Notes: generated from the sequence alone by a model not told the origin. A stretch of DNA of 64,000 nucleotides from Candidatus Omnitrophota bacterium (GCA_043813915.1 JBDRKO010000026.1:155-64154), one strand, 5' to 3'. Counted from the stretch's first letter, positions 3,395 to 40,916 are shown. Numbers and translations: made by a program.

Positions 3395-3406
3395 CAGGAG
3401 AAATAG

Positions 3407-7310: not shown

Positions 7311-7953
7311 ATATTTTGAAAAAGAGTACCAGGATTTCAATTCGTCATATAAACAGCCCGGCGAGCTTAAAGATGTTATTCGGAGACTATCCTTCAGGTT
7401 TAATAAGAAGGCCCTGGACGGAAGATTGAACGCGCTGCTTGATCTGGCGGGAGAGAACGTCAAAGGCAAAAGTATGCTTGATGTGGGATGCGGCCCGGGC
7501 TTTTATTCTATTGAGCTGGCGAAAAAAGGCGCTAAGGTAACCGGACTCGATTATTCTAAAGGGATGATAGACGCGGCGCGGCGAAATGCCGCCGAAGCCG
7601 GGGTCGGGGTTGATTTTAAACATGGCGATTATCTGGAGGAAGAGGGACATCCCGCGTTCGATTGTGTTTTCGCTACCGGCGTTATTGAGTATGTCGATCC
7701 GCGGGAGCAGCGGAATTTTATCAGAAAAATGGCGGATGCGTCGAAAGACGCGGTCATCGTGAGTTTTCCTAAAAAGTACATATTACACGCGTTTGCGCGT
7801 AATATATGGCTGAGAATCTTCAAGAAACTTAAGATAAGTTTTTTTTCCGATAAAGACATTGCTAATGTAACACAAGGTCTTAAAGAAACAGACAGGCGTG
7901 ATGTCGGCATTCTATGGGTAATAAAATTTAAGAGAGTTCAAAATGAAAAGTGA
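7294..7953 (+). CDS. Class I SAM-dependent methyltransferase
   Basis: MLDVGCGPGFYSIELAKKGAKVTGLDYS (motif I GxGxG), followed by an acidic motif II. Confidence 0.7.
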   Translation: MVKAREYFEKEYQDFNSSYKQPGELKDVIRRLSFRFNKKALDGRLNALLDLAGENVKGKSMLDVGCGPGFYSIELAKKGAKVTGLDYSKGMIDAARRNAAEAGVGVDFKHGDYLEEEGHPAFDCVFATGVIEYVDPREQRNFIRKMADASKDAVIVSFPKKYILHAFARNIWLRIFKKLKISFFSDKDIANVTQGLKETDRRDVGILWVIKFKRVQNEK

Positions 7954-13154: not shown

Positions 13155-14123
13155 CTATAGACCCGCGTTTTCGTCGTACCATTTGACGGTGGTGAATATA
13201 CCGTCGCGCAGAGCGTGTGAGGGGGCGTATCCCAGTTTTTTTAATTTGGTAATGTCGGGACAGCGTCTGGAAGTACTGCCTGCGGAAAGTTTACCGGGTA
13301 TGATCTCGATTTTTTTTCCGTAATATTCCGCTACAAGGTATATTATTTTATTTATGGTCACTTCTTCCGATGTGCCGATATTATAGATGTTCAGGTGTTC
13401 GCCTTTTTCGATGACCTTCATCAGACCGTCGATAAAGTCGTCAATGAAAACGAACGCGCGGGTCTCTTCGCCGGTTCCCTGGATAGGGAACCGTATCGGA
13501 CCTTTGTTCTTTGAAACAAGCGCTTTCATCCTTATGGCGGATTGCGGCACTACGTGTTCGGTACCCATATCCGGTCCGTAAACATTGTGGGGCCTAAAGA
13601 TGACCGCGCGGTCAAAATATTTCCGGCCATAGTTAAGTGTCATGATCTCGCTTATTATCTTACCGGCGCCGTAAGAATACCGCGGGTTCAAGGGGTCCGG
13701 TATAGAAAGAGGCACATTTTCATTTGTCGGGACAGAAGGCGGTGTCTGGTATACTTCGGAACTTGATGCCAGTATAAGTTCTTTTATGTTGTTTTCCCTG
13801 CAGGCATCGAGGACGTTCACCATGCCTTTTACCCCTACATCCAGAACGAGCTCGGGTTTGGAATAGAAAAATTCCGTTCCGTTCACGAAAGCGAGATGGC
13901 ATACACTGTCCGCGCCTATCGCGGCTTTTCTGACAGCTTCGGCATCCCTGATGTCGGCTTCGATAAACTCTATCCTGTCTATTACATCCGTAAGACGTTC
14001 CGCCGAACCTCTTGACTGGTTGTCGAGCACACGCACGCGGTATCCCGTTTCGGCCATACGGCGGACCAGCGCGGAACCTATAAACCCGGAGCCCCCGGTA
14101 ATAAGATAAAGTTTTTTGGTCAT
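13155..14123 (-). CDS. NAD-dependent epimerase/dehydratase (extended SDR; WbpP/GalE-like nucleotide-sugar epimerase candidate)
   Basis: LYLITGGSGFIGSALV Rossmann motif, YSYGAGK (YxxxK); 322 aa. Confidence 0.6.
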   Translation of the reverse strand: MTKKLYLITGGSGFIGSALVRRMAETGYRVRVLDNQSRGSAERLTDVIDRIEFIEADIRDAEAVRKAAIGADSVCHLAFVNGTEFFYSKPELVLDVGVKGMVNVLDACRENNIKELILASSSEVYQTPPSVPTNENVPLSIPDPLNPRYSYGAGKIISEIMTLNYGRKYFDRAVIFRPHNVYGPDMGTEHVVPQSAIRMKALVSKNKGPIRFPIQGTGEETRAFVFIDDFIDGLMKVIEKGEHLNIYNIGTSEEVTINKIIYLVAEYYGKKIEIIPGKLSAGSTSRRCPDITKLKKLGYAPSHALRDGIFTTVKWYDENAGL

Positions 14124-14128
14124 ATCGG

Positions 14129-15187
14129 CTATTTATTCACCTCGATCCGTTGTTCCGATCCGTTCGATCTGCGCGCCGCGTCCAGAAGCTGCTGAACGCG
14201 AAGACTGTCTTTTAAGTCCGGTCTCTGGGGAAGGCCTGTCTCGATCCAGTCCAGGAAACGGTTCACAAGGCAGGATACAGGAGCGATACGGCTGTCCGGA
14301 TCCGGCGCTGACAATGAATGCTGACAGGTTTCTTCGATCTTAGATGTCCCGCGTTTTGCCGTAAAAATTTTAAAACCGTTGATATGATCGGAAGAAGTGT
14401 TTTCCAGGACCATCGTCCCTTCGCTTCCGTAAAATTCTATCCTGTGCCCGCCGCCCGGAATAGAATGAGTAGATATAGTGACCGAAAGAGCGCATCCCGA
14501 GGCTGTTTTAGCGGAGATAATATTAAGCGTATCTGTCCGGCGCGTATCTCCGGGCGCTTTATGCATCCGGCACGAAAGTGACGTGATGGGTCCCACGAAC
14601 CATTCAAGGTAATAGAATACATGAGACGCGAATTGGTTAAGTGTTCCGCCGCCTTCGTCTGTGCGGGTTTTCCATGAGTCCAGACCTTTTTTATTGGAAT
14701 ATGTCTCAATGTCCCACGAAACGACGATATGCCGCAGCGTTCCTATATCGCCGCGTTCCAGTATGGACTTGGCTTTTTTCCATTCGAGTATCTCCGGGAA
14801 TTCAAGATCAATCATATTGGCGGTTCCGGCTTGTACGGAAGCTTCTACTATTTTGCGTCCCGAATCCATATCGATAGAAAGCGGTTTTTCACAAAAGACC
14901 GCTTTGCCCGCTAAAAATGCTTTAATAGCTATTTCACCTTGAACAGATGGGGGAACAGCGATGGATACGGCGTCAATTTCCGGTGAATTTAACATATCCT
15001 GCCAGGAGCCGAAGACCTTCGGGATACCGAGTTTTTTAGCTGTTTCCGATGCTTTTTCAGGGTCTCCTGACGCAATAGCCGCAACTTCACATCTTCCGTC
15101 CGAACGGAAAGCGGGTATATGTGTGCTTTGCGCGAACCCTCTTCCTATAATGCCGATCCTGATCTTTTTGTTATTATGATTTGTCAT
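14129..15187 (-). CDS. Gfo/Idh/MocA-family oxidoreductase
   Basis: KIRIGIIGRGFAQSTHIPAF N-terminal NAD-binding motif; 352 aa. Confidence 0.6.
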   Translation of the reverse strand: MTNHNNKKIRIGIIGRGFAQSTHIPAFRSDGRCEVAAIASGDPEKASETAKKLGIPKVFGSWQDMLNSPEIDAVSIAVPPSVQGEIAIKAFLAGKAVFCEKPLSIDMDSGRKIVEASVQAGTANMIDLEFPEILEWKKAKSILERGDIGTLRHIVVSWDIETYSNKKGLDSWKTRTDEGGGTLNQFASHVFYYLEWFVGPITSLSCRMHKAPGDTRRTDTLNIISAKTASGCALSVTISTHSIPGGGHRIEFYGSEGTMVLENTSSDHINGFKIFTAKRGTSKIEETCQHSLSAPDPDSRIAPVSCLVNRFLDWIETGLPQRPDLKDSLRVQQLLDAARRSNGSEQRIEVNK

Positions 15188-15202
15188 TCTGCGGTCAGAA
15201 CT

Positions 15203-16420
15203 TTATACTGTCGCGGTTAAAAAGTTTTGTTTCAGGAAACCCCATACGTCCAAGATCGGTTTCCCTTTAAGGTCCAGGTCTTTATATTCTTTGTGCGGCG
15301 CGCATAACACCAGAACATCGCTTTTTGATATAACTTCTTCTAAAGGCACTAGAGACGGGTCGGTCGTTACGTGAGGATCTGTCATAAGAAGCCCTTTGGC
15401 CCGGAAGGCCAGCAGTTTTTTCAGCTTATAGCTTAAAGAAGACCTGACATCATCGCTGTCCGCCTTGAATGCCATGCCGAGAAGTCCTACGGTCGTATCT
15501 TCCAGGTCGCATTTTTGTGATAATTCCTCGACCAGATAGAGGGGCAGTCCTTCGTTGACGAGCATTGCCGCGTGTCCCAGAGAGAAGTTATTGTTATTGA
15601 ATGCCGCAAGCTGCATAGTGTCCTTAAAAAGACACGGCCCAGCCGCGAACCCCGGCCCCGGAATATTTGACGCCCGGGGATAATCCTGTTTTATCCCTTC
15701 CAGTACCTTATGATAGTCTACGCCGGCCGAATTGGCCATCATGAAGAACTGGTTTGTCGCGGCGAACTGTATGTATCTGTAAGCATTGCTGAAAAGTTTG
15801 GCGAATTCCGCTTCTATAGGAGATAATCTGACCAGAGAAGGCGCTATCTTACCGAAAAGTTCCGCTGCTTTTTCTTCTGATCCAGGTGTTGTTCCGCTTA
15901 TTATCTGCGGCAGGTTTTGCAGTTCTTTTATAGCGTATCCTTGTACGATACGTTCAGGACAGAAAGCTACGGACATTTCCTTGCCGTTCTCTTTGAGATA
16001 TTTATCCAGCCAGGTTGTCATGCCGGGGAATACCGTTGAACGGAGCACTAAAAGCCCTCCTCGGAAGAGATGGGGGAGAAGAGGCGCAAGACAATCTTTT
16101 ACGGTCTGACGGACCGGATTGAGAAATTCATCTACCGGGGTCCCTATCGTTATCACTACGGTCGAGGCTTTAGCGACATCGGCCGGATCGGAGGAAAAGG
16201 AGAGTCTTTTCTCTTTCAGGGCTTTCTTTAAAAGCGGCTCGGCATCATGTTCCATAAAAGGGAGACGGCCTTCGCTTATTGTCCGCATCGAGCCCTCGTT
16301 TATGTCGTTTATCAGGACGTTCATTCCTTTGTGAGCAAAGACTATAGCCAGAGGAAGACCTACATGTCCTGCGCCGCCGACTATACATACATCATATTGT
16401 TTTTTGTTTTCCATGGTCAT
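15203..16420 (-). CDS. Nucleotide-sugar dehydrogenase, UDP-N-acetylhexosamine 6-dehydrogenase family (WbpA/WecC/TviB-like)
   Basis: VCIVGGAGHVGLPLAIVFA (GxGxVGLP motif characteristic of the UDP-ManNAc/UDP-GlcNAc dehydrogenase subgroup); 405 aa. Confidence 0.6.
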   Translation of the reverse strand: MTMENKKQYDVCIVGGAGHVGLPLAIVFAHKGMNVLINDINEGSMRTISEGRLPFMEHDAEPLLKKALKEKRLSFSSDPADVAKASTVVITIGTPVDEFLNPVRQTVKDCLAPLLPHLFRGGLLVLRSTVFPGMTTWLDKYLKENGKEMSVAFCPERIVQGYAIKELQNLPQIISGTTPGSEEKAAELFGKIAPSLVRLSPIEAEFAKLFSNAYRYIQFAATNQFFMMANSAGVDYHKVLEGIKQDYPRASNIPGPGFAAGPCLFKDTMQLAAFNNNNFSLGHAAMLVNEGLPLYLVEELSQKCDLEDTTVGLLGMAFKADSDDVRSSLSYKLKKLLAFRAKGLLMTDPHVTTDPSLVPLEEVISKSDVLVLCAPHKEYKDLDLKGKPILDVWGFLKQNFLTATV

Positions 16421-16450
16421 TACGCCTCATATTGTGTTACGGACTATAGT

Positions 16451-17005
16451 CTAATTTATCGCTAATGTTAATTTACCTTTTGATACTGCCAACATAACGA
16501 GACCCAGGTTAAGGGCATGTGTAAATTTGTCTTCACATATGTATTTAGTCAACTCATCGATGGTACAAGTGATCACTTCGATATTCTCTTCACCCGAAGG
16601 AGAGCTTTTCGACAGTATAGCATTATCGGAAAAATAACACCACATACGGTTTGCCATACGGCCCGTATCCGGCATGAGGCACCCCAAAAGTTCAGCTTTT
16701 TCGATATAGTAACCGGTCTCTTCCAGGAGCTCACGCTTAGCGGATGCTTCGGGAGCTTCACCTTTATCGACATGTCCGCTGGGCAGCTCCAGCACATAAG
16801 CTTCCACAGCGGGGCGGTACTGTCTGATCAAAATAACCCGGTTATCGGTTGTTACAGCGAGGATGGAGACATAATCATCCGGTTTAACGGCGTAGTATTG
16901 GTGTTCTTTGCCGGAAGGGTCCATCCCCTTAAGATTCTTGGAAAGGACTTTGAACCAAGGGGTTTCGAATTCAACAGTACGTTTTGTGATCTCCGGAACG
17001 GTCAT
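16451..17005 (-). CDS. NUDIX hydrolase (nucleoside-diphosphate-sugar pyrophosphatase candidate)
   Basis: Nudix box GHVDKGEAPEASAKRELLEETGY (Gx5Ex7REUxEExGU). Confidence 0.7.
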   Translation of the reverse strand: MTVPEITKRTVEFETPWFKVLSKNLKGMDPSGKEHQYYAVKPDDYVSILAVTTDNRVILIRQYRPAVEAYVLELPSGHVDKGEAPEASAKRELLEETGYYIEKAELLGCLMPDTGRMANRMWCYFSDNAILSKSSPSGEENIEVITCTIDELTKYICEDKFTHALNLGLVMLAVSKGKLTLAIN

Positions 17006-17215: not shown

Positions 17216-18712
17216 ATGTTAAAATACCTAAGTTATAATATACATAACCTAAGCGATAAGGGGAAGCTTTTTTTGGTCCTGGCGGTATCTTTCCTGGCCA
17301 GGATCATCAATATTACCATGCCGATCCTTGAAGGGACGGCAGCACGTCAGATACAAACTGCCGGTATCGCGAAGTTCTTTTACAATAACAGCTTCGATAT
17401 ATTGTTCCCCAGGCTGGATTTCCTGACCGGAAAAGAAAGCTGTCTTATCCTTGAACTTCCGCTGTACAACGCTATTCTGGCGTCTTTATACCGTATGACA
17501 GGCGGGGTGCATGAGTGGATGGGGCGCCTGGTGAGCATACTTTTTTTTCTCGGCGCGGGATTTTTTGTCTATTTGATAATAAAAAGGCTCTATGGCGCGG
17601 GGATAGCTCTTACGGGGCTCATCGTTTACAATCTGTCGCCTCTGGGTATAATATTCAGCCGCGCGATCATGCCGGACTCGGCAATGCTTTTTTTCTCAAC
17701 GGGAGCCGTTTATTTTCTTTTTTCTTTCGTTCAGGGCGCGAAACCGCAGAATTATTGGATATCGGCTGTTTTTACGATGACCGCTTTACTGGTCAAACCG
17801 CATTCCTTCTATATCCTGTTGCCGCTTTTATACCTGGTTTTCTACAGACAGAGAATGAGGTGTTTTCTTGATGTTAAGAATTATATTTTCGCCTTGATCG
17901 TATTGACACCGGCCTTTTTCTGGTATTCGCACGGCTCTTCGGTGCATAGTTCTTTATCAGCGGGCAAGATGATGAATTTCAGTATTTCTAACTGGTTCGA
18001 CCCGAAGTTATTCTTAAGTCCGGGTTTCTACCGGGATATATTTGAGATCTTTTCCGGGATACTATTGACGCCTGTCGGGCTTGTTCTTTTTGTTCTGGGC
18101 ATATCGGTAAAGATGCGCGACAGGATCGAGTTCGTGCTGGCAGCATGGCTGGCGGGAGTGACGCTTTACCTGACTTCGTTTAACGCGCTTTTATGGGAAC
18201 CGTATTATTATCTTTCGGTCCTGCCCATAGCGTCGATCTTCATATCCCGTGTTTTTCTTCCGCATCGGGGAGAAGGCCTTAAAAAACCGTATTTTTCGGG
18301 TAAGACCGCGAAAATACTGATCTTTACCGTTACAGCGTTATTTATAGGGAAATATGCGTTACAGGCGTATATGGTGCCGTCCGGGTACAGATATATCCCT
18401 GAAGCCGCGGAAGCGGTCAGGCGTTTAACCGGGCCCGATGATCTTGTGGTCGTATGCGAGAGGCAGGGGTCGGGAGCGCTGCTGTACTATTTTGACAGAA
18501 AAGGCTGGGTGATGCCTGTTCCTCAGGAAGAAGCCGCTTTCAAGGCCGGGATAGTGAAGGAACTGGAAAAGTTCAGATCTAAAGGGGCCGGATATTTTAT
18601 TGCCGCTGACGGAGGCAGGTTCTCGGCGGATTTTCTCGGGCGTAATTTACCGGAAAGATACGAGTTGATCGAACATCGGAAAAATAAATACGTGATCTAT
18701 AAATTAAGTTAA
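17216..18712 (+). CDS. GT-C membrane glycosyltransferase, ArnT/GT83-like (undecaprenyl-phosphate sugar dependent)
   Basis: About 11 N-terminal TM helices. First loops carry an ArnT-like pattern (ARQIQTAGIAKFF...ELPLYNAILASLYRMTGGVHEWMGRLVSILFF). C-terminal soluble domain. Confidence 0.55.
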   Translation: MLKYLSYNIHNLSDKGKLFLVLAVSFLARIINITMPILEGTAARQIQTAGIAKFFYNNSFDILFPRLDFLTGKESCLILELPLYNAILASLYRMTGGVHEWMGRLVSILFFLGAGFFVYLIIKRLYGAGIALTGLIVYNLSPLGIIFSRAIMPDSAMLFFSTGAVYFLFSFVQGAKPQNYWISAVFTMTALLVKPHSFYILLPLLYLVFYRQRMRCFLDVKNYIFALIVLTPAFFWYSHGSSVHSSLSAGKMMNFSISNWFDPKLFLSPGFYRDIFEIFSGILLTPVGLVLFVLGISVKMRDRIEFVLAAWLAGVTLYLTSFNALLWEPYYYLSVLPIASIFISRVFLPHRGEGLKKPYFSGKTAKILIFTVTALFIGKYALQAYMVPSGYRYIPEAAEAVRRLTGPDDLVVVCERQGSGALLYYFDRKGWVMPVPQEEAAFKAGIVKELEKFRSKGAGYFIAADGGRFSADFLGRNLPERYELIEHRKNKYVIYKLS

Positions 18713-18713
18713 T

Positions 18714-18842
18714 ATGAAAATAGCATTGATCAATCCTCCGCCGATCCCCAGGAGTATTTCAGAAAACTTGGATATACACGGAGAGCGCATGCTTTTTTTA
18801 AGCAGTAAAACTTATTTTCGAAGGTCCAAAAAAAACAGGTGA
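18714..18842 (+). other. 42-codon ORF (MKIALINPPPIPRSISENLDIHGERMLFLSSKTYFRRSKKNR); possible gene remnant or leader peptide
   Basis: ATG 2 nt after the upstream stop; the N-terminus resembles the start of B12-rSAM proteins (MKIxLINPP...), but the ORF terminates early and has no SD. Confidence 0.15.
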
Positions 18843-18850
18843 GGTCATAG

Positions 18851-21031
18851 ATGAAAAAGATCCTTGTTACGGGCGGCGCCGGATATCTCGGGTCGGTTCT
18901 CTGTCATAAACTTATCGATAAGGGATATTCCATAAGATGTTTTGACCGGCTTTATTTCGGAGATGGGTCCGTCAAGGACCTTTCTTCAACGGGACGTTTT
19001 GAGCTCATTAAAGGAAATATAGTCAACCTTAAGGATTTCCCTGAACTTCTTGACGACATAGATAGTGTGATACATCTGGCGGGCTTGGCTAACGATCCTA
19101 CCGCGGAACTTGATACGGAGCTGACCAGGATAACCAATCAGTATGCGTCGGTAGAACTGGCAAAAGAAGCAAAAAAGAAAGGGATATCCAAATTTATATT
19201 CGCGTCAAGCTGCAGCGTTTACGGAAAAGGCCTTTCGGAAGAGATAACGGAAGAGTCCCCGCTTAATCCCGTCTCGGTGTATGCCGAGTCCAAAGTGCTG
19301 GCAGAACAGGAGATAGCGCTTCTTAAGGACGAAAAGTTCCATCCGGTGTTTCTCCGGCAGGCGACACTTTTCGGCAGATCATACAGGATGCGTTTTGACC
19401 TTGCGATAAACCTCATGGTGGTGCATGCTCTTACCAAAAAGAAGATATTCGTATGGGGCGGCGGCGAACAGTGGCGGCCATTTCTGCACGTCGACGACGC
19501 GGCGGAGGCTTTTTTGGCCTGCCTTGAAGCCGAGACGAAAACGGTTTCAGGAAAAGTTTTCAATGTCGGAGATTCAAAAGTAAATTATAAGATAATCGAC
19601 CTGGCCAATTTTGTTAAGGACAGGATAAAAGGGACGGAGCTGGAAATAGTGCCGGACACCCCGGATAAACGCAGTTACAAGGTGCGTTTTGATAAGATAG
19701 GAAAGAGCCTTGGATGGTATCCGAAGATAAAGGTGGAAGACGGTATAAAAGAGCTCAGCGACTATCTGCTGGAAGGTAAGATAAAAGATTTTGACAGTCC
19801 CGAGTTCTATAATATCAAGACGATAATGAGTTTTATCGAAAAACCGGCGATAGAGGGAGGCGACCCGGTCAGGACCGAATTCCTTCCGTTCTCTCTTCCC
19901 CTGATAGGTAAAGAAGAAGAGGAAGAGGTTCTTGATACATTGAGGTCCGGATGGCTTACCACGGGTCCTAAAACAAAGAAACTGGAAGATGAGTTCAGCG
20001 GGTACCTGGGGGCAAAACATTCCATATGCGTCAGTTCCTGTACGGCCGCTCTTCATCTCGCGCTGGTCGCTTTGGGTATAAAAAAAGGAGACGAGGTCAT
20101 AACCTCGCCCATTACCTGGCCCGCTACCGCGAACGTTATTGTCCATACAGGCGCGGTCCCTGTTTTTGCGGACGTTGAACGCGATACGTTAAATATCGAT
20201 CCCGCCAAAATAGAAAAGAAAATAACAAAAAAGACCAAGGCGATAATCCCGGTACATATGGCAGGCCAGCCCTGTGACATGGATAAGATAAGCAGGATAG
20301 CTAAAAAACACGGTCTGTTCGTGATAGAGGACGCGGCTCACGCGATAGGAGCCGAATATAACGGCAGTAAGATAGGGGTGGTAAGCGACATGACCTGTTT
20401 CAGTTTCTATCCGATAAAGAACATGACCACCATAGAAGGAGGGCTCATAACCACGAACAATGACGGCTGGGCGGAAAATATGCGCGTTAACAGTCTGCAC
20501 GGCATAGATAAGGATGCGTGGAAGAGGTACACAAATACGGAGTTCAAACATCATGAGGTTGTCTATCCGGGGTTCAAATACAATATGAGCGATATTCAGG
20601 CATCCATGGGGCTTGCTCAGCTCAGGAAACTGGACGGATTTATCGGCAGAAGAAAAGAGATCACAAGCATATATAACGACTCGTTCAGGTCTTTTGAAGA
20701 GATAATACTGCCGGTATCAAAAGGGAACATCAAACACGCTCATCATCTTTATGTGATCATTCTCGATACTGACAGACTTAAAGTAGGCAGAGATAAGATC
20801 ATACAAACACTGAACAAAGAGAATATCGGCACGGGGCTCCATTTCAGGTCTTTACATGTGCAGGAGTATTATAAAAAGACCTTTGCGTATAAGCCGGAAG
20901 ACTTGCCCGAAGCGGCGTTCCTGAGCGACAGGATAATATCTCTGCCGCTTTACCCGAAGATGGATCAATATGATGTTGATTCGGTAATAAGGGCCGTCAG
21001 AAAAGCGATCATTTATTATAAAGCGGCGTAA
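18851..21031 (+). CDS. Bifunctional fusion: N-terminal extended SDR epimerase/dehydratase (~330 aa) + C-terminal DegT-family PLP aminotransferase (~390 aa)
   Basis: N-terminus ILVTGGAGYLGSVL...YAESK...RPFLHVDD. C-terminus EEEEVLDTLRSGWLTTGPK...CVSSCTAALHLAL...PxHMAG...CFSFYPxKN (DegT motifs). The SDR half is paralogous to 39037-40449. Confidence 0.65.
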   Translation: MKKILVTGGAGYLGSVLCHKLIDKGYSIRCFDRLYFGDGSVKDLSSTGRFELIKGNIVNLKDFPELLDDIDSVIHLAGLANDPTAELDTELTRITNQYASVELAKEAKKKGISKFIFASSCSVYGKGLSEEITEESPLNPVSVYAESKVLAEQEIALLKDEKFHPVFLRQATLFGRSYRMRFDLAINLMVVHALTKKKIFVWGGGEQWRPFLHVDDAAEAFLACLEAETKTVSGKVFNVGDSKVNYKIIDLANFVKDRIKGTELEIVPDTPDKRSYKVRFDKIGKSLGWYPKIKVEDGIKELSDYLLEGKIKDFDSPEFYNIKTIMSFIEKPAIEGGDPVRTEFLPFSLPLIGKEEEEEVLDTLRSGWLTTGPKTKKLEDEFSGYLGAKHSICVSSCTAALHLALVALGIKKGDEVITSPITWPATANVIVHTGAVPVFADVERDTLNIDPAKIEKKITKKTKAIIPVHMAGQPCDMDKISRIAKKHGLFVIEDAAHAIGAEYNGSKIGVVSDMTCFSFYPIKNMTTIEGGLITTNNDGWAENMRVNSLHGIDKDAWKRYTNTEFKHHEVVYPGFKYNMSDIQASMGLAQLRKLDGFIGRRKEITSIYNDSFRSFEEIILPVSKGNIKHAHHLYVIILDTDRLKVGRDKIIQTLNKENIGTGLHFRSLHVQEYYKKTFAYKPEDLPEAAFLSDRIISLPLYPKMDQYDVDSVIRAVRKAIIYYKAA

Positions 21032-21130
21032 CGGATACCGGCATGTAGCTGGCTGTAATAACAGATGACGGCAGTATCGACGGGATTGTCTCGCGGGTAC
21101 CGCAAAGTGAATTAGCTTCGGAAGGAAGTC

Positions 21131-22849
21131 ATGAGAAATATCGAACGCACTAGGACCATTCTGTTTTTCATACTGATAGCGGCTTTTGTCGTCCGGTTAA
21201 CCGGCGTAAATTTCGGCCTGCCGTTCCTTTATCATAACGATGAGCCTATAATCGTCAATTACGCTCTTGCTTACGGCGCGGGCGACCTGAACCCTCATTT
21301 TTTCAAGATACCGCCTTTTTTGTCATATATACTTTTCTTTCTTTACGGTGTGTTCTATCTCCTGGGCAGAGTAACGGGTCTTTTCGGCGGAGTTAATGAT
21401 TTCGGTTATTTTTTTCTGAACGACGTCAGCGTTTTTTATCTTATAGGAAGGATAGCCTCGGGCGTTGTTTTGGGCACGGCATCGGTCTATCTTATGTATG
21501 TTCTAGGTAAACGCGTATTTTCGAGGCCGGCGGGTCTTATAGCCGCGCTGTTTCTGGCATTCAATTTTCTGCATGTCCGGGACTCGCATTACATATACCT
21601 CGATGTGCCGCTTGTATTTTTCACGACCCTTTATTTTATAGTTCTCGGCACGCTTTACAAAAAAGACCGTCCGCGCGATTACATGATATCGGGATTTGTT
21701 ATGGCCCTGGCTGTGTCGATGAAATATAACGGCATATTAATGGCCGTTCCGACCGTTCTTATTATGGCGAGAGCCCTGATAAGGGCCCGCAAAGAGATAC
21801 CGGTCCTGCTTAAAAAATACGGGTTATATATTTCTTTTTTCGTTCTGGGACTCTTCCTTACAAATCCTTTCATGTTCCTGGACTGGAAATTCTTTTTTGC
21901 CAGGACCGCCAACATGCCTTTTACGGGCTCCGATCCCTGGTATCATATAAGGATATCGCTTTTGGGAAGTTGCGGGATATATATGTGTATAGCGGCGGTT
22001 ATAGGCATGATAACGGCTTTCATAAAGAAAAAGGATATTTTTACAGTATCCCTTGTATGTTTTACGGCAGCATATTATTTTATTCTCACAAGGGCAAGTC
22101 AGCCTGCGGAAAGATATATTTTTCCCATATTACCGATAGTCCTTTTGTTTTCAGCGTATTTAGTAACGGTGCTTTCGGACTTGACCAGCGACAGGCGGAT
22201 TAAAACAACGGTCTTAGTTTTTTGCTGTCTCTTGTTCATGGTACCGTCCGGTCTAAGAATATATCATAGCGAGAGGCTCTTCCTGGCGGAGGATACCCGG
22301 ACACAGTGTTATGACTGGATAACGAAGAACATCGCCTATGGCAGCGCGATAGCTCTTGACGCTACCGGGCCTGTATTTCCTCGGCTTAAGCAGACAAAAG
22401 AACTTGTGGAAGAAAGTTTCAGTAATTTCAACAACCCCAAGTTCGCGACCCCCGAAGGGTCCATGAGCTATAAGGTCAAACTTCTGCTTTCGAACCCCGA
22501 TTACCCGGAAGATACATATCGGATACTTTACCTGCGCAAGAAGATATCGAGAAAGAACCGTTTTCTCGGTCTTTACCCCGAATCGCTCCTTGATATGGAT
22601 GAATTGAGAAGGCAGGGAATAGAGTACGTGGTCGCGCACAATATTCTGCTGAGTTCTTACTATAAGGATTTTCTGGAACAGCTGGAGGAAGGCTCTGTCC
22701 TGGTAAAAGAGTTCTCTCCATATAAACCCGGACGCGGGAGGATAAAACCGCTGGAAGAATCTTCTCTGGCGGCCGCTCCTTTTTCTTTCAGGGAACTTTC
22801 GGACCGTGAAAGGCCGGGGCCTGTTCTCAGGATATATCGGTTGAGGTGA
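21131..22849 (+). CDS. GT-C membrane glycosyltransferase, PMT_2/ArnT-like
   Basis: FFILIAAFVVRLTGVNFGLPFLYHNDEP and multiple TM helices; 572 aa with a C-terminal soluble region. Confidence 0.5.
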   Translation: MRNIERTRTILFFILIAAFVVRLTGVNFGLPFLYHNDEPIIVNYALAYGAGDLNPHFFKIPPFLSYILFFLYGVFYLLGRVTGLFGGVNDFGYFFLNDVSVFYLIGRIASGVVLGTASVYLMYVLGKRVFSRPAGLIAALFLAFNFLHVRDSHYIYLDVPLVFFTTLYFIVLGTLYKKDRPRDYMISGFVMALAVSMKYNGILMAVPTVLIMARALIRARKEIPVLLKKYGLYISFFVLGLFLTNPFMFLDWKFFFARTANMPFTGSDPWYHIRISLLGSCGIYMCIAAVIGMITAFIKKKDIFTVSLVCFTAAYYFILTRASQPAERYIFPILPIVLLFSAYLVTVLSDLTSDRRIKTTVLVFCCLLFMVPSGLRIYHSERLFLAEDTRTQCYDWITKNIAYGSAIALDATGPVFPRLKQTKELVEESFSNFNNPKFATPEGSMSYKVKLLLSNPDYPEDTYRILYLRKKISRKNRFLGLYPESLLDMDELRRQGIEYVVAHNILLSSYYKDFLEQLEEGSVLVKEFSPYKPGRGRIKPLEESSLAAAPFSFRELSDRERPGPVLRIYRLR

Positions 22850-22853
22850 AAAA

Positions 22854-23606
22854 ATGGACCATTCGGTCGTAGTTCCGGTGTATAACGAGCAAGAGTCGAT
22901 AAGAGCTTTATACGATCGGCTGAAACATGTTATGGAAAAGATGGCTTCCGATTATGAAATCGTATTCGTTGACGATGGTTCGGGAGACGCTTCTTTTAAC
23001 GTATTGAAAAAAATAGCTTCCGGTGACGGTAAAGTGAAAATTCTGAGTTTTTCCCGTAATTTCGGACAGCATCCGGCCGTAATAGCCGGGTTTGAAGCGG
23101 CTTCGGGAGAGATGATACTGACGCTTGACGCTGATCTTCAGAACCCGCCGGAAGAAATACCGCGTCTTATCGAGGCAATGCGCGGCGGGCATGATATGGT
23201 AAGCGGGATCCGCTCGGCCAGGCAGGATACCGCTTTTCGCAGGTCCGGTTCTTTTTTCACTGTTATGTTCCTGAATATACTTAGCGGGAGTAACGTCAGG
23301 GACTATGGGACCATGCTGCGCGCTTTCCGGAAAGATTTCGCTAAGACCCTGGCGGAGCGTTACCGAAAAGAAAGGCTGTATATACCGGTACTTGTCAATA
23401 AACTTACGAAAAATATTCTTGAAGTGGAAGCCGGGCATGAAACCCGTTTCTCCGGAAGCTCCAAGTACGGTATGCTTAAGCTCATAAAGACTTTCATCTC
23501 GATATTCATCAGGTGGCATCATAAATTATCGCTTTTTCTGCAGTCCGTTCACATGATGAAAAAAGACGGGATACTTTATGAAATCGAGGAGAAGATAAAT
23601 CTTTGA
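22854..23606 (+). CDS. GT2 UndP-sugar synthase, GtrB/ArnC-like
   Basis: VVPVYNEQESI, FVDDGSGDAS, FSRNFGQHPA (characteristic GtrB/ArnC/DPM motif). Confidence 0.7.
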   Translation: MDHSVVVPVYNEQESIRALYDRLKHVMEKMASDYEIVFVDDGSGDASFNVLKKIASGDGKVKILSFSRNFGQHPAVIAGFEAASGEMILTLDADLQNPPEEIPRLIEAMRGGHDMVSGIRSARQDTAFRRSGSFFTVMFLNILSGSNVRDYGTMLRAFRKDFAKTLAERYRKERLYIPVLVNKLTKNILEVEAGHETRFSGSSKYGMLKLIKTFISIFIRWHHKLSLFLQSVHMMKKDGILYEIEEKINL

Positions 23607-24349
23607 AGATATCCATACGAAGCAATAAATGGGATAGTTCCTTTTTCGGGAAAAAGATCGGCAGAATGACCTGCGCGGGCCCTGCGAAGCCGTCTCGTAT
23701 TTTTTTCGCGGAACTGCTGGAGACAGCCATAAGAAGGGCCGCTTTGTTGAAATTTAACTACCTTATCTTCACCGTATCGGAAGGTCACGTTTTTTCTGTA
23801 AACACTTTAAAAGAAAAAGGGTTTACCCTGGGAGGATCGTCTGTTGACAGTAAGTTACGTCTCAAAAAAACGCCGGAAAGAACAAGAGGTCCCAGGTACG
23901 ATATCGCCGAAGCCGGGAAAAGGGACATGCGTGAAGCCGAAAAAATATCCGGATATTCTTTTAGAAAAAGCAGATTGTATAATATCGAGTTCGCATCCGG
24001 GAAAAAAGTCGATCGTTATCATGCGTTATGGGTAAGGAACCTGCATGAGAACGAGAATTCGGTTGTTCTCCTCGCGAAAGACAAAAATAAGATATATGGA
24101 TTTCTGGCCGGCACGATCGATATCAGGAACAGAACATCGAGGATAATACTCATGGCGAGTGCTCGGGGCAAACGGAGCAGAGGAGCGGGAAGCGACCTTA
24201 TGCGCGGTTTTCTTGAATGGAGCAGAGAGAGGGGCGTTAACACCGTGTACGTTAAAACCCAGAAAGAGAACGAGGGGGCTCTGAGATTCTATAAAAAACA
24301 CGGATTCAAGATCTGTTCACGGGAAGAACACTATCATATACATCTATGA
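23603..24349 (+). CDS. GNAT-family N-acetyltransferase (WecD-like amino-sugar N-acetyltransferase candidate)
   Basis: C-terminal GNAT motifs (KIYGFLAG..., RGKRSRGAGSDLM, GALRFYKKHGFK) with an N-terminal non-GNAT extension; 248 aa. Confidence 0.5.
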   Translation: MKISIRSNKWDSSFFGKKIGRMTCAGPAKPSRIFFAELLETAIRRAALLKFNYLIFTVSEGHVFSVNTLKEKGFTLGGSSVDSKLRLKKTPERTRGPRYDIAEAGKRDMREAEKISGYSFRKSRLYNIEFASGKKVDRYHALWVRNLHENENSVVLLAKDKNKIYGFLAGTIDIRNRTSRIILMASARGKRSRGAGSDLMRGFLEWSRERGVNTVYVKTQKENEGALRFYKKHGFKICSREEHYHIHL

Positions 24350-26016
24350 AAAAGATCATACTGAGCATACTCATAATGCTGTTCGTCTTCTTATGCCTGG
24401 GGACAATGAACAGCACTTCGCCTATCTGTGACGAAGTAGCGCACCATCTGGCGAACGGTTATTCTTATGTGAAGACCGGTGATTTCCGCATGAACCCTTC
24501 CTCGCCGGCCCTTTCAAGAAGCTTAATAGGCTTACCTATGCTTTTCATGGGCCTCAAACTGCCCACAGATCATGTTTCCTGGAAGGAGAACGATAGTCCC
24601 ACTTTCGGCAGACTGTTCCTGTATGAATATAACGACGATCCTGAAAAAATAGTTTTTTGGGGCCGTGTCCCCGTGATGATCCAATCGGTATTTCTTTGTT
24701 TGTTGATATACGCGTGGGGCAAACGTATATACGGCACGAACGCGGCGCTTTTTTCCGTCTTTTTATATCTATTCTCACCGGCAGTTCTCGGCAACTCATG
24801 TCTCGCTATGACGGATATTTCCGGAAGTCTGTTCATATTTCTATCGGTTTATCAGTTCTGGAGATATTTGAAGAAAAAGACGATTCCGACCATGATCCTG
24901 GCGGGGGTTTGTCTTGGTCTGGCCCAATCCGCTAAACATACGGCTGTAGTACTGGTTCCTATGTTCGTTATCCTAGGGATCATAGATGCCGCGTCGTCAA
25001 AAAACCTGAGGGAAAATTTACTTCAATTTACAAAAGACATGATCTTTATCTGCCTGGCGGCTTTTTTCGCGTTATGGGCTACATACTTTTTTGAGTTTAA
25101 ACCGCTCCTTTTGAACGCGCCTGATGTCGGGGAGAAAGTACAATACATAAAAAAAGCACTGGCTTTTATTCCGTTATTGAACAAAGAACATATTGCCGGC
25201 TGGTGCATCTATTTCGCGAAGAATGTTCCTATACCGCTGAGCTCTTTCCTCGTATCCCTTCTGGGAGTATTACACCAAGGTACGATAGGGCAGGGTGTTT
25301 TCTTTTTCGGAGAGAATATTACAGGTGGATCAAGGATCTACTATGTTGTGGATTATCTTATCAAAGCACCGCTCCCAATTTTGATCTTTATAGCAACCGC
25401 TATTTCGCTTTCGATAGCGAAGAAGAAAACAAAGACAGACCTTATTACTATCAGCTGTATGGTCCTTCCTATAATAGTGATCTTTGGCTTTTCATCAGCA
25501 TCCAAAGTCCAGGGAGGCATACGGTACTTGTTGCCGATGTATCCGTTCCTCTTTATGTGGGTCGGAGATATCATTAACGTTAAATTCACGGCAAATAAGA
25601 AGATGTTCTATAGGACTATTCTGGGGGTTCTATGCATATGGCAGTTATGGATAGTAATGGCCGCGTATCCTGATTATTTATGTTATTTCAACGAATCTGT
25701 CGGTGGTCTTGACGGTACGGCTAACGGTATAACGCACGATAGCGATTGGGGGCAGGATCTTAAAGCTCTCGGCAGGTATGTTAAAGAGAATGATGTAGAG
25801 GAGACAGTTCTTACGTATTTTGGGACAGCCGATCCTGATCTTTACGGTATTAAATACCGGCTCATGCAGCCTGATGAGAAGGAAACGCCGCGCAGAGAAG
25901 TATACGCGGTAAGCGTGCGGTACATAACAGCCGCGGAATGGACGAAAAAATATGAACCCACGGCGAAAGCCGGATATTCGATATTTATTTACGATTTCAG
26001 GGAACGGTCAGAATGA
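24346..26016 (+). CDS. GT-C membrane glycosyltransferase, PMT_2/GT39/ArnT-like
   Basis: Loop-1 DE motif (SPICDEVAHHLANGYSY), then ~11 TM helices and a C-terminal soluble domain; 556 aa. Confidence 0.55.
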   Translation: MKKIILSILIMLFVFLCLGTMNSTSPICDEVAHHLANGYSYVKTGDFRMNPSSPALSRSLIGLPMLFMGLKLPTDHVSWKENDSPTFGRLFLYEYNDDPEKIVFWGRVPVMIQSVFLCLLIYAWGKRIYGTNAALFSVFLYLFSPAVLGNSCLAMTDISGSLFIFLSVYQFWRYLKKKTIPTMILAGVCLGLAQSAKHTAVVLVPMFVILGIIDAASSKNLRENLLQFTKDMIFICLAAFFALWATYFFEFKPLLLNAPDVGEKVQYIKKALAFIPLLNKEHIAGWCIYFAKNVPIPLSSFLVSLLGVLHQGTIGQGVFFFGENITGGSRIYYVVDYLIKAPLPILIFIATAISLSIAKKKTKTDLITISCMVLPIIVIFGFSSASKVQGGIRYLLPMYPFLFMWVGDIINVKFTANKKMFYRTILGVLCIWQLWIVMAAYPDYLCYFNESVGGLDGTANGITHDSDWGQDLKALGRYVKENDVEETVLTYFGTADPDLYGIKYRLMQPDEKETPRREVYAVSVRYITAAEWTKKYEPTAKAGYSIFIYDFRERSE

Positions 26017-28220
26017 GGGATATTTTTAAAAAACACGGATTATTCATATCGATATTTTCTTTTTCGGTAGTCATTTTTCTGGCAGGTATCGTTTTTCTGA
26101 GAAAAGGTTTCTTGACCGGAGACAATATCAGCCAGGCATACCCCTGGCTCAAGGTTTATTCGGAATTCTTAAAAGACGGTAGTTTCCCGTATTGGGTAAA
26201 AGATATACACTGCGGGTTTCCGCTTATGGGAGAAGGGCAGGTAGGAGGGTTCTATCCGCTGAATATCCTGTTCTTTTATGTTCTTCCGTTCCGTCCGGCG
26301 TATAACTTTATAATAATTTTCCATTACATGCTTCTGGGGACTTTTACCTACCTCTTTACGCGGAAGCTGGGCGCGGATGAATGGGGCGGAACCCTTGCGG
26401 CTATTATACTCTGTTTCGGTGAAACTTTAGCTAATCTCGGATATCACGTGGCCATGCTGCGCGCGCTTACGTGGTTCCCGCTGGTCCTCCTTTTGTTCGA
26501 GCATTATCTGGAAAAAGGGCGCCTCAGGTATATGGTCATAGCCGCGTTGGCGGCTGGAACGCAGCTTCTTTCCGGTTCGGTGCAGATGGCTTCTTACAGC
26601 ATGATATGTTATTTTTTCTATCTATCATACGCCGCACGTATCAGAAAAAGACCCCTTTTAAAGACGTACGTTTCTTTTGCGGGTTTCGCCGCAATAGCCG
26701 CTATCATGTTCCTTCCTCAGCTTCTGTTGACACTTAAGGTCTTGAAATATTCGGGCAGGCTCGCCTCGCTTGATTTTTCGTTATGGGGCTCTCTTAATCC
26801 GTTATCTTTCCTGACCACGGTCTTTCCCTGGCCGGCTAGGGCACACGGGCAGATAGCGACCGAGGGGATGTTCCTCGGAGTGCTGTCTATACTGTTCCTG
26901 ATCGTCTCGGTCCGCCTGCTGAAAGAAAAAAAAGAAATAAGGCCGCTTGTCCTTATAGCGGCCGTGTCGGTCTTTGCGGCTCTCGGCTGGTTCAATCCCT
27001 TTTATGTGCTGGCGCTTAAAGTCTCAAAATTCTATTTTTTCAGAGGAGGCGCCAGATTTATCTTTTTCGGTCTGTTCAGCGCTTCTGTCCTGGCCGGCAT
27101 AGGTTTTTCGCGTTTCTTTTCCCAAAGACATTCTGATCGTTTAAAACAGATAAAGTCTTTTTATCGATTTATCCTTTTTTGCGCTGTTATGATAGGAGGT
27201 TCTGTTTTAACTCTTATTTACGCTAAGCCGTGGATAATAAAGACCGGACATAAATTCGTCGATATGTTCATAGCGGGTATGCCATACCACCGGCGCAGTC
27301 TTGAAGAATATTATTTGAGAGTTGAAAATGTTTATCAGGGACTCTTGAGCAGTAAGGCTCTGACAAGTTCTCATATGCTGCTAGCCGCATTATTCGTGGT
27401 AAGCGCGGTGATCTATTGCGCTATAGCAAAAAAATATCTTACAGATAACAATTCTAAAAAATACAAACTCTATGCAAAAAGCGCGGCGATCATGTTGATC
27501 CTCGCCAACCTGTACGCGTATAAATATTTTCCGGGAGGAATAAATGATAACTTAGCGGGCTATAATATCTCCGAGAAGCCGGCTTCTGTCATTTACGGAA
27601 AAATAAAGGAAGATAAGGATGAATTTCGCGTTGCTCCTTATGGTATACGTTCAGGGAAACTGCCTTTCTGGATAATGCCCAATATGAACATGATCTACGG
27701 GGTCGACTCGATAGGTGTTTATTCTCCGCTTTCCGGGGAGGGTTACAAAAAAGCTCTTGAAAAAGTTCAGATGGTGGATGATTCGGTAGGGCTTTTGGAT
27801 CCAAAAGAGGGGGCACTTGATGCGGATACTTTATCTCTTCTCGGGCAGATGAATGTCAAATATCTTATGGCACCCGAGGCCGTAAATGATCCCATGTTGG
27901 CAGAAGTCTCCCGCGAAAACGGAGTATACCTTTACCGGTTGAAGGATTTTCTCGGTAAAGGGTTTTTTAGCGCCGACCTGAATGCTTCGTCAGTATCCGG
28001 TGAGGGGATAAAAGTGGTCGAATATTCATCCGGATACGCCGAATTAGAGGTAGATCTTGCTTCCGGTGGTTATATTGTATTCTCCGAATGGTTCTTCCCG
28101 GGTTGGACCGCCCGGATAGACGGGAAGAACGTCAAAATAGAGCCTTTCAAGAGTGTGCTTCAAGCCGTGCGTTGCTCCAAAGGAAAGCACAGGATAGTTT
28201 TCACATACCGACCATTTTAA
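26013..28220 (+). CDS. Large polytopic membrane protein, YfhO-like (GT-C-type lipid-linked sugar transferase candidate)
   Basis: 735 aa, about 13 TM helices, N-terminal QAYPWLKVYSEF...GFPLMGEGQVGGFYPLN region and a large C-terminal extracytoplasmic domain. Confidence 0.4.
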   Translation: MRDIFKKHGLFISIFSFSVVIFLAGIVFLRKGFLTGDNISQAYPWLKVYSEFLKDGSFPYWVKDIHCGFPLMGEGQVGGFYPLNILFFYVLPFRPAYNFIIIFHYMLLGTFTYLFTRKLGADEWGGTLAAIILCFGETLANLGYHVAMLRALTWFPLVLLLFEHYLEKGRLRYMVIAALAAGTQLLSGSVQMASYSMICYFFYLSYAARIRKRPLLKTYVSFAGFAAIAAIMFLPQLLLTLKVLKYSGRLASLDFSLWGSLNPLSFLTTVFPWPARAHGQIATEGMFLGVLSILFLIVSVRLLKEKKEIRPLVLIAAVSVFAALGWFNPFYVLALKVSKFYFFRGGARFIFFGLFSASVLAGIGFSRFFSQRHSDRLKQIKSFYRFILFCAVMIGGSVLTLIYAKPWIIKTGHKFVDMFIAGMPYHRRSLEEYYLRVENVYQGLLSSKALTSSHMLLAALFVVSAVIYCAIAKKYLTDNNSKKYKLYAKSAAIMLILANLYAYKYFPGGINDNLAGYNISEKPASVIYGKIKEDKDEFRVAPYGIRSGKLPFWIMPNMNMIYGVDSIGVYSPLSGEGYKKALEKVQMVDDSVGLLDPKEGALDADTLSLLGQMNVKYLMAPEAVNDPMLAEVSRENGVYLYRLKDFLGKGFFSADLNASSVSGEGIKVVEYSSGYAELEVDLASGGYIVFSEWFFPGWTARIDGKNVKIEPFKSVLQAVRCSKGKHRIVFTYRPF

Positions 28221-40449: not shown

Positions 40450-40463
40450 AAAGGAGCGTAATA

Positions 40464-40916
40464 ATGGAAAGGACTATGCCCAGACCCGAACTGGTGGAAC
40501 TCGAGTTCTACAGCGATGAAAGGGGATACCTTGTTCCCATGAGTAACAGTCTGAGTCCCGAAATGAACAGCGCGGTAAAGAGGACTTATATCGTCGGTAA
40601 TTTCGGCAAAGGTGTTATACGCGGCATGCATTTTCACAAGAAAGAGACAAAGATATTTTATATTGCTCACGGCGCGGCGAAATTCGTAGGAATAAACCCT
40701 GATTCCCCGGAAGACGACAGGCACGTTTTTGTTCTTTCCGATAAAAAGCCCGGTATGGTCATAATCCCTCCGGGATATGCGAACGGTTGGATGTCTCTTG
40801 CGGATGATACGATATTAGTCGCGCTTTCAACGTCAAGTTTCGAGGAAAGCGCAAAGGACGATAAGAGGTATGACCCTTATCAGTGGGGGGATATCTGGTC
40901 GTTAAAAGCGAGGTGA
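40464..40916 (+). CDS. Cupin-fold sugar 3,4-ketoisomerase-like protein (FdtA/QdtA/WxcM-C-like)
   Basis: 150 aa; RGMHFHKKETKIFYIAHGAAKFV resembles the RGxHxH...E motif of FdtA-type ketoisomerases. Confidence 0.5.
   Translation: MERTMPRPELVELEFYSDERGYLVPMSNSLSPEMNSAVKRTYIVGNFGKGVIRGMHFHKKETKIFYIAHGAAKFVGINPDSPEDDRHVFVLSDKKPGMVIIPPGYANGWMSLADDTILVALSTSSFEESAKDDKRYDPYQWGDIWSLKAR

Follow-up and report, generated by a model that had tools for sequence, protein, structure and literature searches.

In the Arn pathway, a nucleotide sugar is oxidised and aminated by separate proteins, ArnA and ArnB, for which contact and channelling are a proposal, not a demonstrated fact (PMC12650200). ArnB binds its substrate and its amino donor through residues W89, H185, R229 and K241, the latter being the lysine that binds glutamate or 2-oxoglutarate (PMC5936713). 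Cj1427 of Campylobacter jejuni only oxidises C4 of GDP-heptose: it follows a ping-pong mechanism in which tightly bound NADH is regenerated with 2-oxoglutarate and the 4-keto sugar is released, and C. jejuni has a separate 4,6-dehydratase (PMC10680097). Here, we examine a protein in which two activities of this kind may be combined, a fusion of an extended short-chain dehydrogenase/reductase (SDR) with a DegT-type aminotransferase, encoded on the + strand at positions 18851-21031 (stop codon included) of a stretch of 64,000 nucleotides from a Candidatus Omnitrophota bacterium (GCA_043813915.1 JBDRKO010000026.1:155-64154), the whole of which is hereafter called the window. As far as can be judged from sequence, we favour, with some reserve, the view that this fusion is a bifunctional nucleotide-sugar 4-dehydrogenase/4-aminotransferase whose product enters a polyprenyl-phosphate route of the Arn type; this product is probably a 4-amino sugar, used by an operon for surface glycosylation via a lipid carrier.

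The open reading frame (ORF) begins with an ATG, preceded at 6 nt by a Shine-Dalgarno-like AGGTGAGG (18837-18844, + strand), and encodes 726 aa, in which Pfam distinguishes two domains on either side of a connector, all on the + strand. The extended SDR domain (residues 1-325; 18851-19825) matches PF01370 at residues 4-240 (E 5e-48, 164 bits), with a GDP_Man_Dehyd coverage reaching residue ~301, and carries GGAGYLG, D32, S120-C121-S122 (codons 19208-19216), the catalytic pair of Y144-A-E-S-K148 (codons 19280-19294; kept in 33/33 homologues) and an RMRFDL signature. After a conserved YYNIKT comes the connector of about 15 residues (326-339; 19826-19867), the sequence of which is conserved in the alignment of the 33 fusion homologues. 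The remainder (residues 340-726; 19868-21028; PF01041, 448 bits) is an aminotransferase domain of the DegT/ArnB-like type dependent on pyridoxal phosphate (PLP), matching DegT_DnrJ_EryC1 at residues 352-717 (E 3e-134) and bearing the PLP-lysine K523 (codon 20417-20419) along with D494. The original prediction had described an SDR joined directly to a DegT aminotransferase in a 726-aa protein and had quoted the motifs YAESK, QWRPFLHVDD and FIFASSCSVYG; the ORF and the Pfam matches bear out the arrangement, and the three motifs are all found in the protein. In an AlphaFold2 model of the fusion (mean pLDDT, i.e., predicted local distance difference test, of 88; pTM, i.e., predicted template modelling score, of 0.85), residues 311-350 reach a pLDDT of 77-91, and this ordered connector, together with the pTM, suggests a defined and fixed arrangement of the two domains. 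When the whole model was submitted to Foldseek, no solved structure spanning both halves was found (query TM <= 0.49).

The fusion is real and common in uncultured bacteria and archaea, and comparative data exclude an assembly artefact. Homologues were sought among 5.8 billion proteins, which yielded more than 120 protein clusters of ~725 aa (51-76% identity, 99-100% query coverage) with source labels of Omnitrophota, Planctomycetota, Patescibacteria, Woesearchaeota and Chloroflexota. One homologue bears the NCBI name "bifunctional SDR family oxidoreductase/aminotransferase", and P0001, encoded on a 183-kb contig of a metagenome-assembled genome (MAG) filed at NCBI under Omnitrophota, matches the fusion at 100% identity. 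Of the 80 best loci in GTDB species representatives, 17 carry an uninterrupted SDR-aminotransferase ORF with an orthologous SDR (e.g., in Planctomycetia, Thermodesulfobacteriota, Myxococcales, Hydrogenedentota, Nitrospiraceae and the cultured Nocardia barduliensis). The same fusion is thus present in protein and genome databases alike, where the original prediction had proposed to look for it, and the frameshift that it had named as a possible source of error, in sequencing or in assembly, can be set aside. That two genes were merged in this way is in our view extremely improbable: other genomes do have the pair in split form, and nothing else speaks for it, while the clusters are independent, the 17 representatives (cultured Nocardia included) have continuous ORFs and the connector sequence is conserved. 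Neither does one half lack its catalytic residues, another weakness that had been considered, since both catalytic sets are invariant in the 33 homologues.

The pairing of this SDR with an aminotransferase recurs in fused, CBS-tagged and free form. The same two proteins are encoded by separate neighbouring genes, in either order, in loci L018, L031, L035, L053 and L055, which is classic evidence that both activities work together. The count of 17 was reached after curation, as a tblastn criterion of "in-frame, small gap" overcalled fusions: L023, L028 and L033 were ruled out by a stop codon between SDR and aminotransferase, and L035, L039 and L048, of high GC content, by the spurious nature of their long ORFs. 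In L023 (a Bacillaceae MAG), L028 (Bacillus niameyensis) and L033 (Cytobacillus gottheilii), the two genes are adjacent without being fused and share a reading frame; the SDR, which comes first, belongs to another type (STCMVYD, likewise with Cys after Thr), and the aminotransferase is PseC-like (SFHPVKH). Literature searches turned up no characterised SDR-DegT fusion.

The SDR half shows all the marks of an extended SDR (Rossmann GxxGxxG, catalytic Ser/Thr and YxxxK), and G8-G9-A10-G11-Y12-x-G14, D32, S120, Y144 and K148 are invariant in its 33 homologues. Its top match in the PDB is 6vo6 (E 6.5e-38, 35% identity over 305 aa), a chain corresponding to a 313-aa C. jejuni protein that we take to be Cj1427; a literature search did not tie 6VO6/6VO8 to Cj1427. 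Both share, after beta-6, the loop signature SPRMRxDLxVN, with RSYRMRFDLAINL aligning to ISPRMRLDLLVND. If 6vo6 is indeed Cj1427, as we presume, the SDR half has the sequence features of the Cj1427-type C4-dehydrogenase subfamily. The second PDB match, 6zl6, is labelled only "Epimerase domain-containing protein" and is presumably a UDP-glucuronic acid (UDP-GlcA) 4-epimerase. Judged by alignment, the SDR half is not an ArnA dehydrogenase: it is only 22% identical to that of E. coli, and the T432/S433/E434 (T-S-E) of ArnA are replaced by S-C-S, without equivalents of S433 and E434. The same three residues, S120-C121-S122 (invariant in 33/33), occupy the T-D-E positions of RmlB-type 4,6-dehydratases, so that the acid/base pair of these enzymes is not found in the SDR half, and the dehydration ascribed to it in the original prediction has no residue support. 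Moreover, the SDR half stays below the cut-offs of the RmlB-type dehydratase model TIGR01181 (104 vs. 365 bits), of LegB (83 vs. 475 bits) and of PRK11908, of the UDP-GlcA decarboxylase type (56 vs. 294 bits).

Cys121 (codon 19211-19213), next to the catalytic Ser, is also present in the SDR encoded at 39037-40449 of the window (as T-C-S), while the position is Asn in 6vo6 and Ala in the Nocardia fusion. This cysteine could act as an acid/base for chemistry at C5.

The best PDB match of the aminotransferase half is ArnB (1mdo, E 1e-102), with 46% identity to the E. coli protein, and Foldseek superposes it on 4oca with a TM score of 0.94 and on ArnB structures with scores of 0.93-0.94. As expected of the DegT/DnrJ/EryC1/StrS family, the Schiff-base lysine K523 and the aspartate facing the PLP nitrogen N1, D494, are invariant in the 33 homologues, and so is K576, the equivalent of ArnB K241. 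Of the ArnB binding residues, W423 (= W89) and K576 (= K241) are present in the fusion; the position of R229 is occupied by Glu564 and is variable among homologues, and H185 is replaced by Tyr520 in 33/33 fusions, while the His is kept in canonical arn-operon enzymes. Neither the ArnB equivalog cut-off (423.6 vs. 631 bits) nor that of PseC (TIGR03588; 383 vs. 423.5 bits) is reached, which, along with the invariant Tyr for His, would place the aminotransferase half in a clade of its own beside ArnB. By these matches, ArnB is all the same the best named family for it, despite the missed cut-off. The Tyr520 codon lies at 20408-20410, within SFYPIKN, against SFHxxKN in ArnB and PseC (H185/H180), and a Tyr is found at the same position in many free-standing relatives of the aminotransferase half.

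The fusion sits in a tightly packed operon on the + strand, in which it is preceded by a PMT_2 glycosyltransferase of the GT-C type (17216-18712; PF13231) and followed by a second one of the PMT_2/PMT type (21131-22849; same position in L003 and L086), an ArnC-like GT2 as putative polyprenyl-phosphate sugar transferase (22854-23606), a GNAT annotated as a WecD-like 4-amino-sugar N-acyltransferase (23603-24349), a third PMT_2 GT-C (24346-26016) and a YfhO-like membrane protein (26013-28220). Over 211 aa, the GT2 shares 41% identity with ArnC of E. coli, and its best NCBIfam match is ArnC (NF007986). The GNAT is nearest to WecD, the dTDP-4-amino-4,6-dideoxygalactose acyltransferase (NF008212; 80 bits, below the cut-off). 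The operon has an ArnC-like GT2 and PMT_2 GT-Cs, without orthologues of the ArnA formyltransferase, the ArnA dehydrogenase and ArnD. Context was counted over the window and 8 homologous loci from precomputed Pfam contexts, tblastn with the PMT_2, GNAT and YfhO proteins of the window being too insensitive for synteny in distant loci. A PMT_2 GT-C accompanies the fusion in 8/9 loci and a small GT2 in 6/9; in 7/9 there is a GNAT or a formyltransferase, the latter in a Woesearchaeota homologue that has a Formyl_trans_N gene immediately upstream. The presence of three paralogous PMT_2 GT-C genes and a YfhO-like gene in one operon (17216-28220), in an order kept in L003 and L086, implies several acceptors or several lipid-linked donors.

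From these data, we propose a pathway whose steps we infer from homology and gene context, the domains, the catalytic residues and the gene linkage being what was measured. The N-terminal SDR would use NAD+ and Ser120/Tyr144/Lys148 to oxidise the C4 hydroxyl of a nucleoside diphosphate (NDP) sugar, probably a UDP-sugar, to the 4-keto sugar, apparently without any dedicated apparatus for dehydration or decarboxylation. The keto intermediate would be handed over within the fused protein to the PLP site, where the ArnB-like half (Lys523) would convert the ketone and L-glutamate into an NDP-4-amino-4-deoxy sugar and 2-oxoglutarate. Thereafter, the WecD-like GNAT would N-acylate the amine, the ArnC-like GT2 would load the sugar on polyprenyl phosphate and the PMT_2 GT-Cs would pass it to a surface acceptor. 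Candidate sugars are a UDP-pentose or UDP-GlcA, leading to UDP-L-Ara4N (UDP-bound 4-amino-4-deoxy-L-arabinose), or a UDP-hexose leading to a 4-amino-hexose.

An attractive elaboration of this scheme, drawn by analogy with Cj1427 and with the WbpB/WbpE pair described below, is that the fusion acts as a self-contained "hydrogen-borrowing" hydroxyl-to-amine converter, in which the NADH bound to the SDR would be re-oxidised by the 2-oxoglutarate released by the aminotransferase. Overall, this reading would amount to sugar-C4-OH + L-Glu -> sugar-C4-NH2 + 2-hydroxyglutarate, without turnover of free cofactor. We consider it fairly doubtful. If it were true, the use of 2-oxoglutarate would drive two unfavourable equilibria forward, and the ordered connector would align both sites for the exchange of keto sugar and 2-oxoglutarate.

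Several observations weigh against a 4-dehydrogenase/4-aminotransferase of an Arn-like route. Concerning the SDR half, an S/Y/K active site without an extra acid/base fits a 4-epimerase equally well, the nearest characterised homologue (6vo6, taken as Cj1427) is only 35% identical and acts on GDP-heptose, and paralogues tagged with an N-terminal CBS pair fill the slot of the 4,6-dehydratase PseB/LegB in nonulosonic-acid clusters. Concerning the Arn-like route, the aminotransferase half misses the ArnB cut-off, the GT2 scores 198 bits against the 529 required by NF007986 and BLAST detects no similarity between the PMT_2 proteins and ArnT. Finally, the context varies, L004 having neither GT-C nor GT2 and L089 neither GT2 nor GNAT.

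The first of these points invites a reading in which the SDR half works as a 4-epimerase, or as a reductase of some other step, and does no more than provide or remove an epimer of the sugar; the aminotransferase would receive its keto substrate from a separate enzyme, and the fusion would amount to co-regulation instead of consecutive catalysis. Besides the bare S/Y/K active site, the high PDB matches to 6zl6 (the presumed UDP-GlcA 4-epimerase) and to UDP-glucose 4-epimerases of the GalE type agree with it, as does the separate UXS-like SDR of the window. We hold it to be very unlikely nonetheless, for the pair is kept, fused or adjacent, across many phyla, and in most of the 8 other loci no second keto-sugar-forming enzyme lies within 8 kb, L002 and L089 each having a further extended SDR. 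The conserved and ordered connector and the confident packing of the domains in the AlphaFold2 model speak against it as well, and the best structural relative, on our identification of 6vo6 as Cj1427, releases a 4-keto product (PMC10680097).

The slot filled by the CBS-tagged paralogues leads to another alternative, as it raises the possibility that this SDR subfamily dehydrates with unconventional residues, such as the invariant Cys121. The SDR half would then be an atypical NDP-hexose 4,6-dehydratase, with Cys121 possibly serving as the C5 base and NAD+ regenerated internally without an external oxidant, and the fusion would yield a viosamine-, bacillosamine- or AltNAc4N-type 4-amino-4,6-dideoxy-hexose. 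In favour of this, the clusters in question contain PseC and PseI above their cut-offs, the neighbouring GNAT is closest to WecD, LegB is among the weak NCBIfam matches of both SDRs of the window and the Cys after the catalytic Ser is invariant in 33/33 homologues. Yet no Asp/Glu pair stands at the T-D-E positions, every dehydratase model remains far below its cut-off and the Nocardia fusion has Ala for Cys; the closest characterised relative, if 6vo6 is Cj1427, does nothing but dehydrogenate, its organism having a separate 4,6-dehydratase (PMC10680097). Taken together, we judge dehydration by the fusion unlikely.

If the 4-dehydrogenase/4-aminotransferase reading is retained, one version of it proposes a substrate. 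The fusion may replace the ArnA dehydrogenase and ArnB non-orthologously, converting a UDP-4-keto-pentose into UDP-L-Ara4N, which would be N-acetylated and given to the ArnC-like GT2; the keto-pentose would arise either by oxidation of UDP-GlcA, with loss of CO2 from the beta-keto acid, or by oxidation of UDP-xylose or UDP-L-arabinose. This is a substrate-specific version of the explanation that we favour, not another mechanism, and it is possible, if somewhat unlikely. The 46% identity of the aminotransferase half to E. coli ArnB and the 41% identity of the GT2 to ArnC are consistent with it, as is the formyltransferase gene immediately upstream of the Woesearchaeota homologue. So are the canonical arn operons recovered in the same scan, which carry the ArnA formyltransferase/dehydrogenase, ArnC, ArnD, ArnT and an aminotransferase 46-48% identical to the fused one. 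Within the window, the dehydrogenase at 15203-16420 and the UXS-like SDR at 3407-4390 could supply UDP-GlcA or UDP-xylose.

A further argument for the pentose came from the Trp at the ArnB W89 position, which is said to exclude a 2-acetamido group (PMC5936713). This position is Trp in the fusion of the window, Phe in the PseC-like paralogue at 40924 and mixed in the fusion family (W 25, F 8). As a marker of "no 2-acetamido", it was rejected, for it is Phe in the canonical arn aminotransferases of Synergistaceae, Elusimicrobia and Facilibium; with Phe in arn operons of other phyla and a W/F mixture in the family, it is unreliable as an argument for UDP-L-Ara4N. Other evidence against the pentose includes the SDR half (22% identical to the ArnA dehydrogenase, without Ser433/Glu434 equivalents), the missed ArnB cut-off and the Tyr that stands for ArnB His185 in 33/33 fusions when canonical arn operons have His. 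Furthermore, none of the 8 other loci has a UDP-glucose dehydrogenase near the fusion, so that this gene accompanies it only in the window, nor does a UXS-like SDR go with the fusion in those loci, and tblastn finds no ArnD homologue in the window, where a weak polysaccharide-deacetylase-like gene lies at 6417-7310.

The window also encodes a split counterpart of the fusion on the + strand, composed of a protein with a CBS pair and an SDR (39037-40449), a 150-aa cupin-fold protein, a putative 4-keto-sugar epimerase or isomerase of RmlC or FdtA type (40464-40916), and a PseC-type aminotransferase (40924-42090; TIGR03588, 508 bits against a cut-off of 423.5). This architecture had been recognised in the original prediction and is confirmed by Pfam, which finds two CBS stretches, and by the alignment of residues 7-113 to the whole of the CBS-pair protein 2ef7. 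The match of about 45% then seen by eye between the two SDRs holds as subfamily kinship, the measured identity being 42% (135/324, E 3e-87), while the next best SDR of the window reaches ~30% against the fused one. The two are of one subfamily: 6vo6 is the closest solved relative of both (35% for the fused SDR, 34% for the CBS-SDR), and all three display the signature G-x-S-x-RMR-x-DL-x-x-N. In contrast, the aminotransferases do not behave as close paralogues, since ArnB of E. coli (46%) resembles the fused one more than does its counterpart at 40924-42090 (40%; 153/380, E 5e-89). We regard the SDRs as long-diverged paralogues within a single subfamily, and the aminotransferases as members of different clades. 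For the cupin, called FdtA-like in the original prediction, the markers diverge: an H-x-H motif, and a Phe aligned with the Tyr of RmlC, form a pattern that we take to lean towards the FdtA/QdtA type, but by score the RmlC-type model comes first (49 bits, against 36.5 for FdtA).

The idea of two solutions to one and the same task does not survive, as the fusion lies in an Arn-like operon and the split module in a pseudaminic-acid-like cluster. The channelling of the keto intermediate by the fused protein and the gating of the split version by its CBS pair, both put forward in the original prediction, are conjectural. By its gene content, the split module serves another pathway than the fusion: in the cluster at 39037-49720, both PseC and a PseI-type nonulosonic acid synthase (48659-49720, + strand; TIGR03586, 459 bits against a cut-off of 340) exceed their equivalog cut-offs, and cytidylyltransferases are encoded at 43793, within the cluster, and at 56631. 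A canonical PseB is absent from it, its slot being filled by the CBS-tagged Cj1427-like SDR and the cupin. CBS-SDR proteins form a widespread family, occurring for instance with cupin, DegT, NeuB and CTP_transf_3 genes in L090 and in a Leg-like set without cupin in L091. Should the CBS-SDR at 39037 be non-dehydrating, the product of the cluster would be a 9-hydroxylated 5,7-diamino nonulosonic acid, and we know of no description of such a compound. Directly 3' of the PseI-like gene, 49717-51573 encodes a protein of 618 aa with a BFO_1060-family glycosyltransferase domain and weak Epimerase_2/Capsule_synth matches, a candidate nonulosonic-acid transferase.

Elsewhere in the window, a divergent operon on the - strand (13155-17005) adjoins that of the fusion and encodes a NUDIX protein (NudE-like), the nucleotide-sugar 6-dehydrogenase at 15203-16420, which passes TIGR03026, an oxidoreductase of the GFO/IDH/MocA type and an SDR in which the motif reads S-S-E. 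This operon may form a branch for uronic acids or keto sugars. A third sugar-nucleotide set, located upstream (2312-4390 and 6417-7310), comprises WecB, which passes its cut-off, the UXS/ArnA-dehydrogenase-like SDR at 3407-4390, the best PDB match of which is human UXS1 (E 1.6e-43), and the polysaccharide-deacetylase-like gene mentioned above. A partial third DegT is found at the start of the window (32-475). Four B12-binding radical SAM enzymes (7943-9361, 32624-34231, 55058-56446 and 58251-60329) are dispersed over this glycan island, which also encodes an acyl-CoA ligase (29333-30901), an ATP-grasp protein (47002-47982) and several SAM methyltransferases; the combination suggests heavily modified sugars. 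Two long ORFs of the same strand, 35051-36373 and 36238-37302, overlap by 136 nt, and the real start of the latter, which is 2-hydroxyacid-dehydrogenase-like, is probably downstream of the listed ATG.

As for its significance, the fusion is a widespread domain arrangement of known chemistry, not a new category of system. If our assignment is right, a broad set of mostly uncultured bacteria and archaea (Omnitrophota, Planctomycetota, Hydrogenedentota, Nitrospirota, MAGs labelled Patescibacteria, Woesearchaeota and a Nocardia) would make 4-amino sugars with an oxidase-aminotransferase held on one polypeptide. These sugars would feed an Arn-like route of lipid carrier and GT-C, suggesting surface decoration with amino sugars well beyond proteobacterial lipid A. 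Because it links the steps of the postulated ArnA-ArnB complex (PMC12650200), the fusion could model the channelling of a labile 4-keto sugar, and its practical value would be that of a candidate biocatalyst for the redox-neutral amination of sugar nucleotides.

Compared with known systems, the operon of the fusion resembles the Arn (PmrHFIJKLM) pathway in its presumed sequence of a UDP-4-keto sugar, transamination from glutamate, N-acylation, loading on polyprenyl phosphate by a GT2 and transfer by a GT-C. It departs from it in several respects: the oxidase is not the ArnA dehydrogenase (22% identity, no S433/E434 equivalents) and is fused to the aminotransferase here, to the formyltransferase in Arn; a GNAT takes the place of the formyltransferase in the window, i.e., acetyl for formyl; tblastn finds no ArnD in the window, the GT-Cs being PMT_2 proteins without BLAST-level similarity to ArnT; and the fusion family also occurs in organisms without lipid A (archaea, a MAG labelled Patescibacteria). 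With Cj1427 (6vo6, as we presume), the SDR half has in common the SPRMRxDLxVN signature and the lack of the dehydratase acid/base pair; unlike the fusion, Cj1427 is free-standing, acts on GDP-heptose, is followed by an epimerase and a reductase with no aminotransferase, and has Asn where the fusion has Cys121. SepI, from septacidin biosynthesis, was dropped as an analogue, for it is a GMC flavoenzyme and not an SDR.

A second oxidase-aminotransferase pair is WbpB/WbpE of Pseudomonas aeruginosa, a 3-dehydrogenase of UDP-GlcNAcA (UDP-N-acetylglucosaminuronic acid) and a 3-aminotransferase. In 2009, Larkin and Imperiali reportedly found WbpB to be coupled to the 2-oxoglutarate made by WbpE; the pair is the model for hydrogen borrowing in the fusion. 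WbpB re-oxidises its bound NADH with 2-oxoglutarate (PMC8651671). Unlike the fusion, WbpB has a GFO/IDH/MocA fold, the chemistry takes place at C3 instead of C4 and the proteins are separate; moreover, WbpE is a weaker match to the aminotransferase half than ArnB in the PDB search (157 vs. 347 bits). The pairs PseB/PseC and LegB/LegC, which catalyse the first two nonulosonic steps, likewise combine an SDR with a subsequent DegT aminotransferase that acts at C4. However, PseB is an inverting 4,6-dehydratase of the Polysacc_synt_2 type, whereas its slot in the window is held by a CBS-tagged Cj1427-like SDR with a cupin, and the fused protein belongs to a different operon and misses the PseC cut-off (383 < 423.5). 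Finally, ArnA is itself a two-domain fusion of enzymes of one pathway acting consecutively, but its partners are a formyltransferase and a dehydrogenase, while those of the window fusion are a dehydrogenase and an aminotransferase: the fusion joins exactly the two steps that ArnA and ArnB perform separately.

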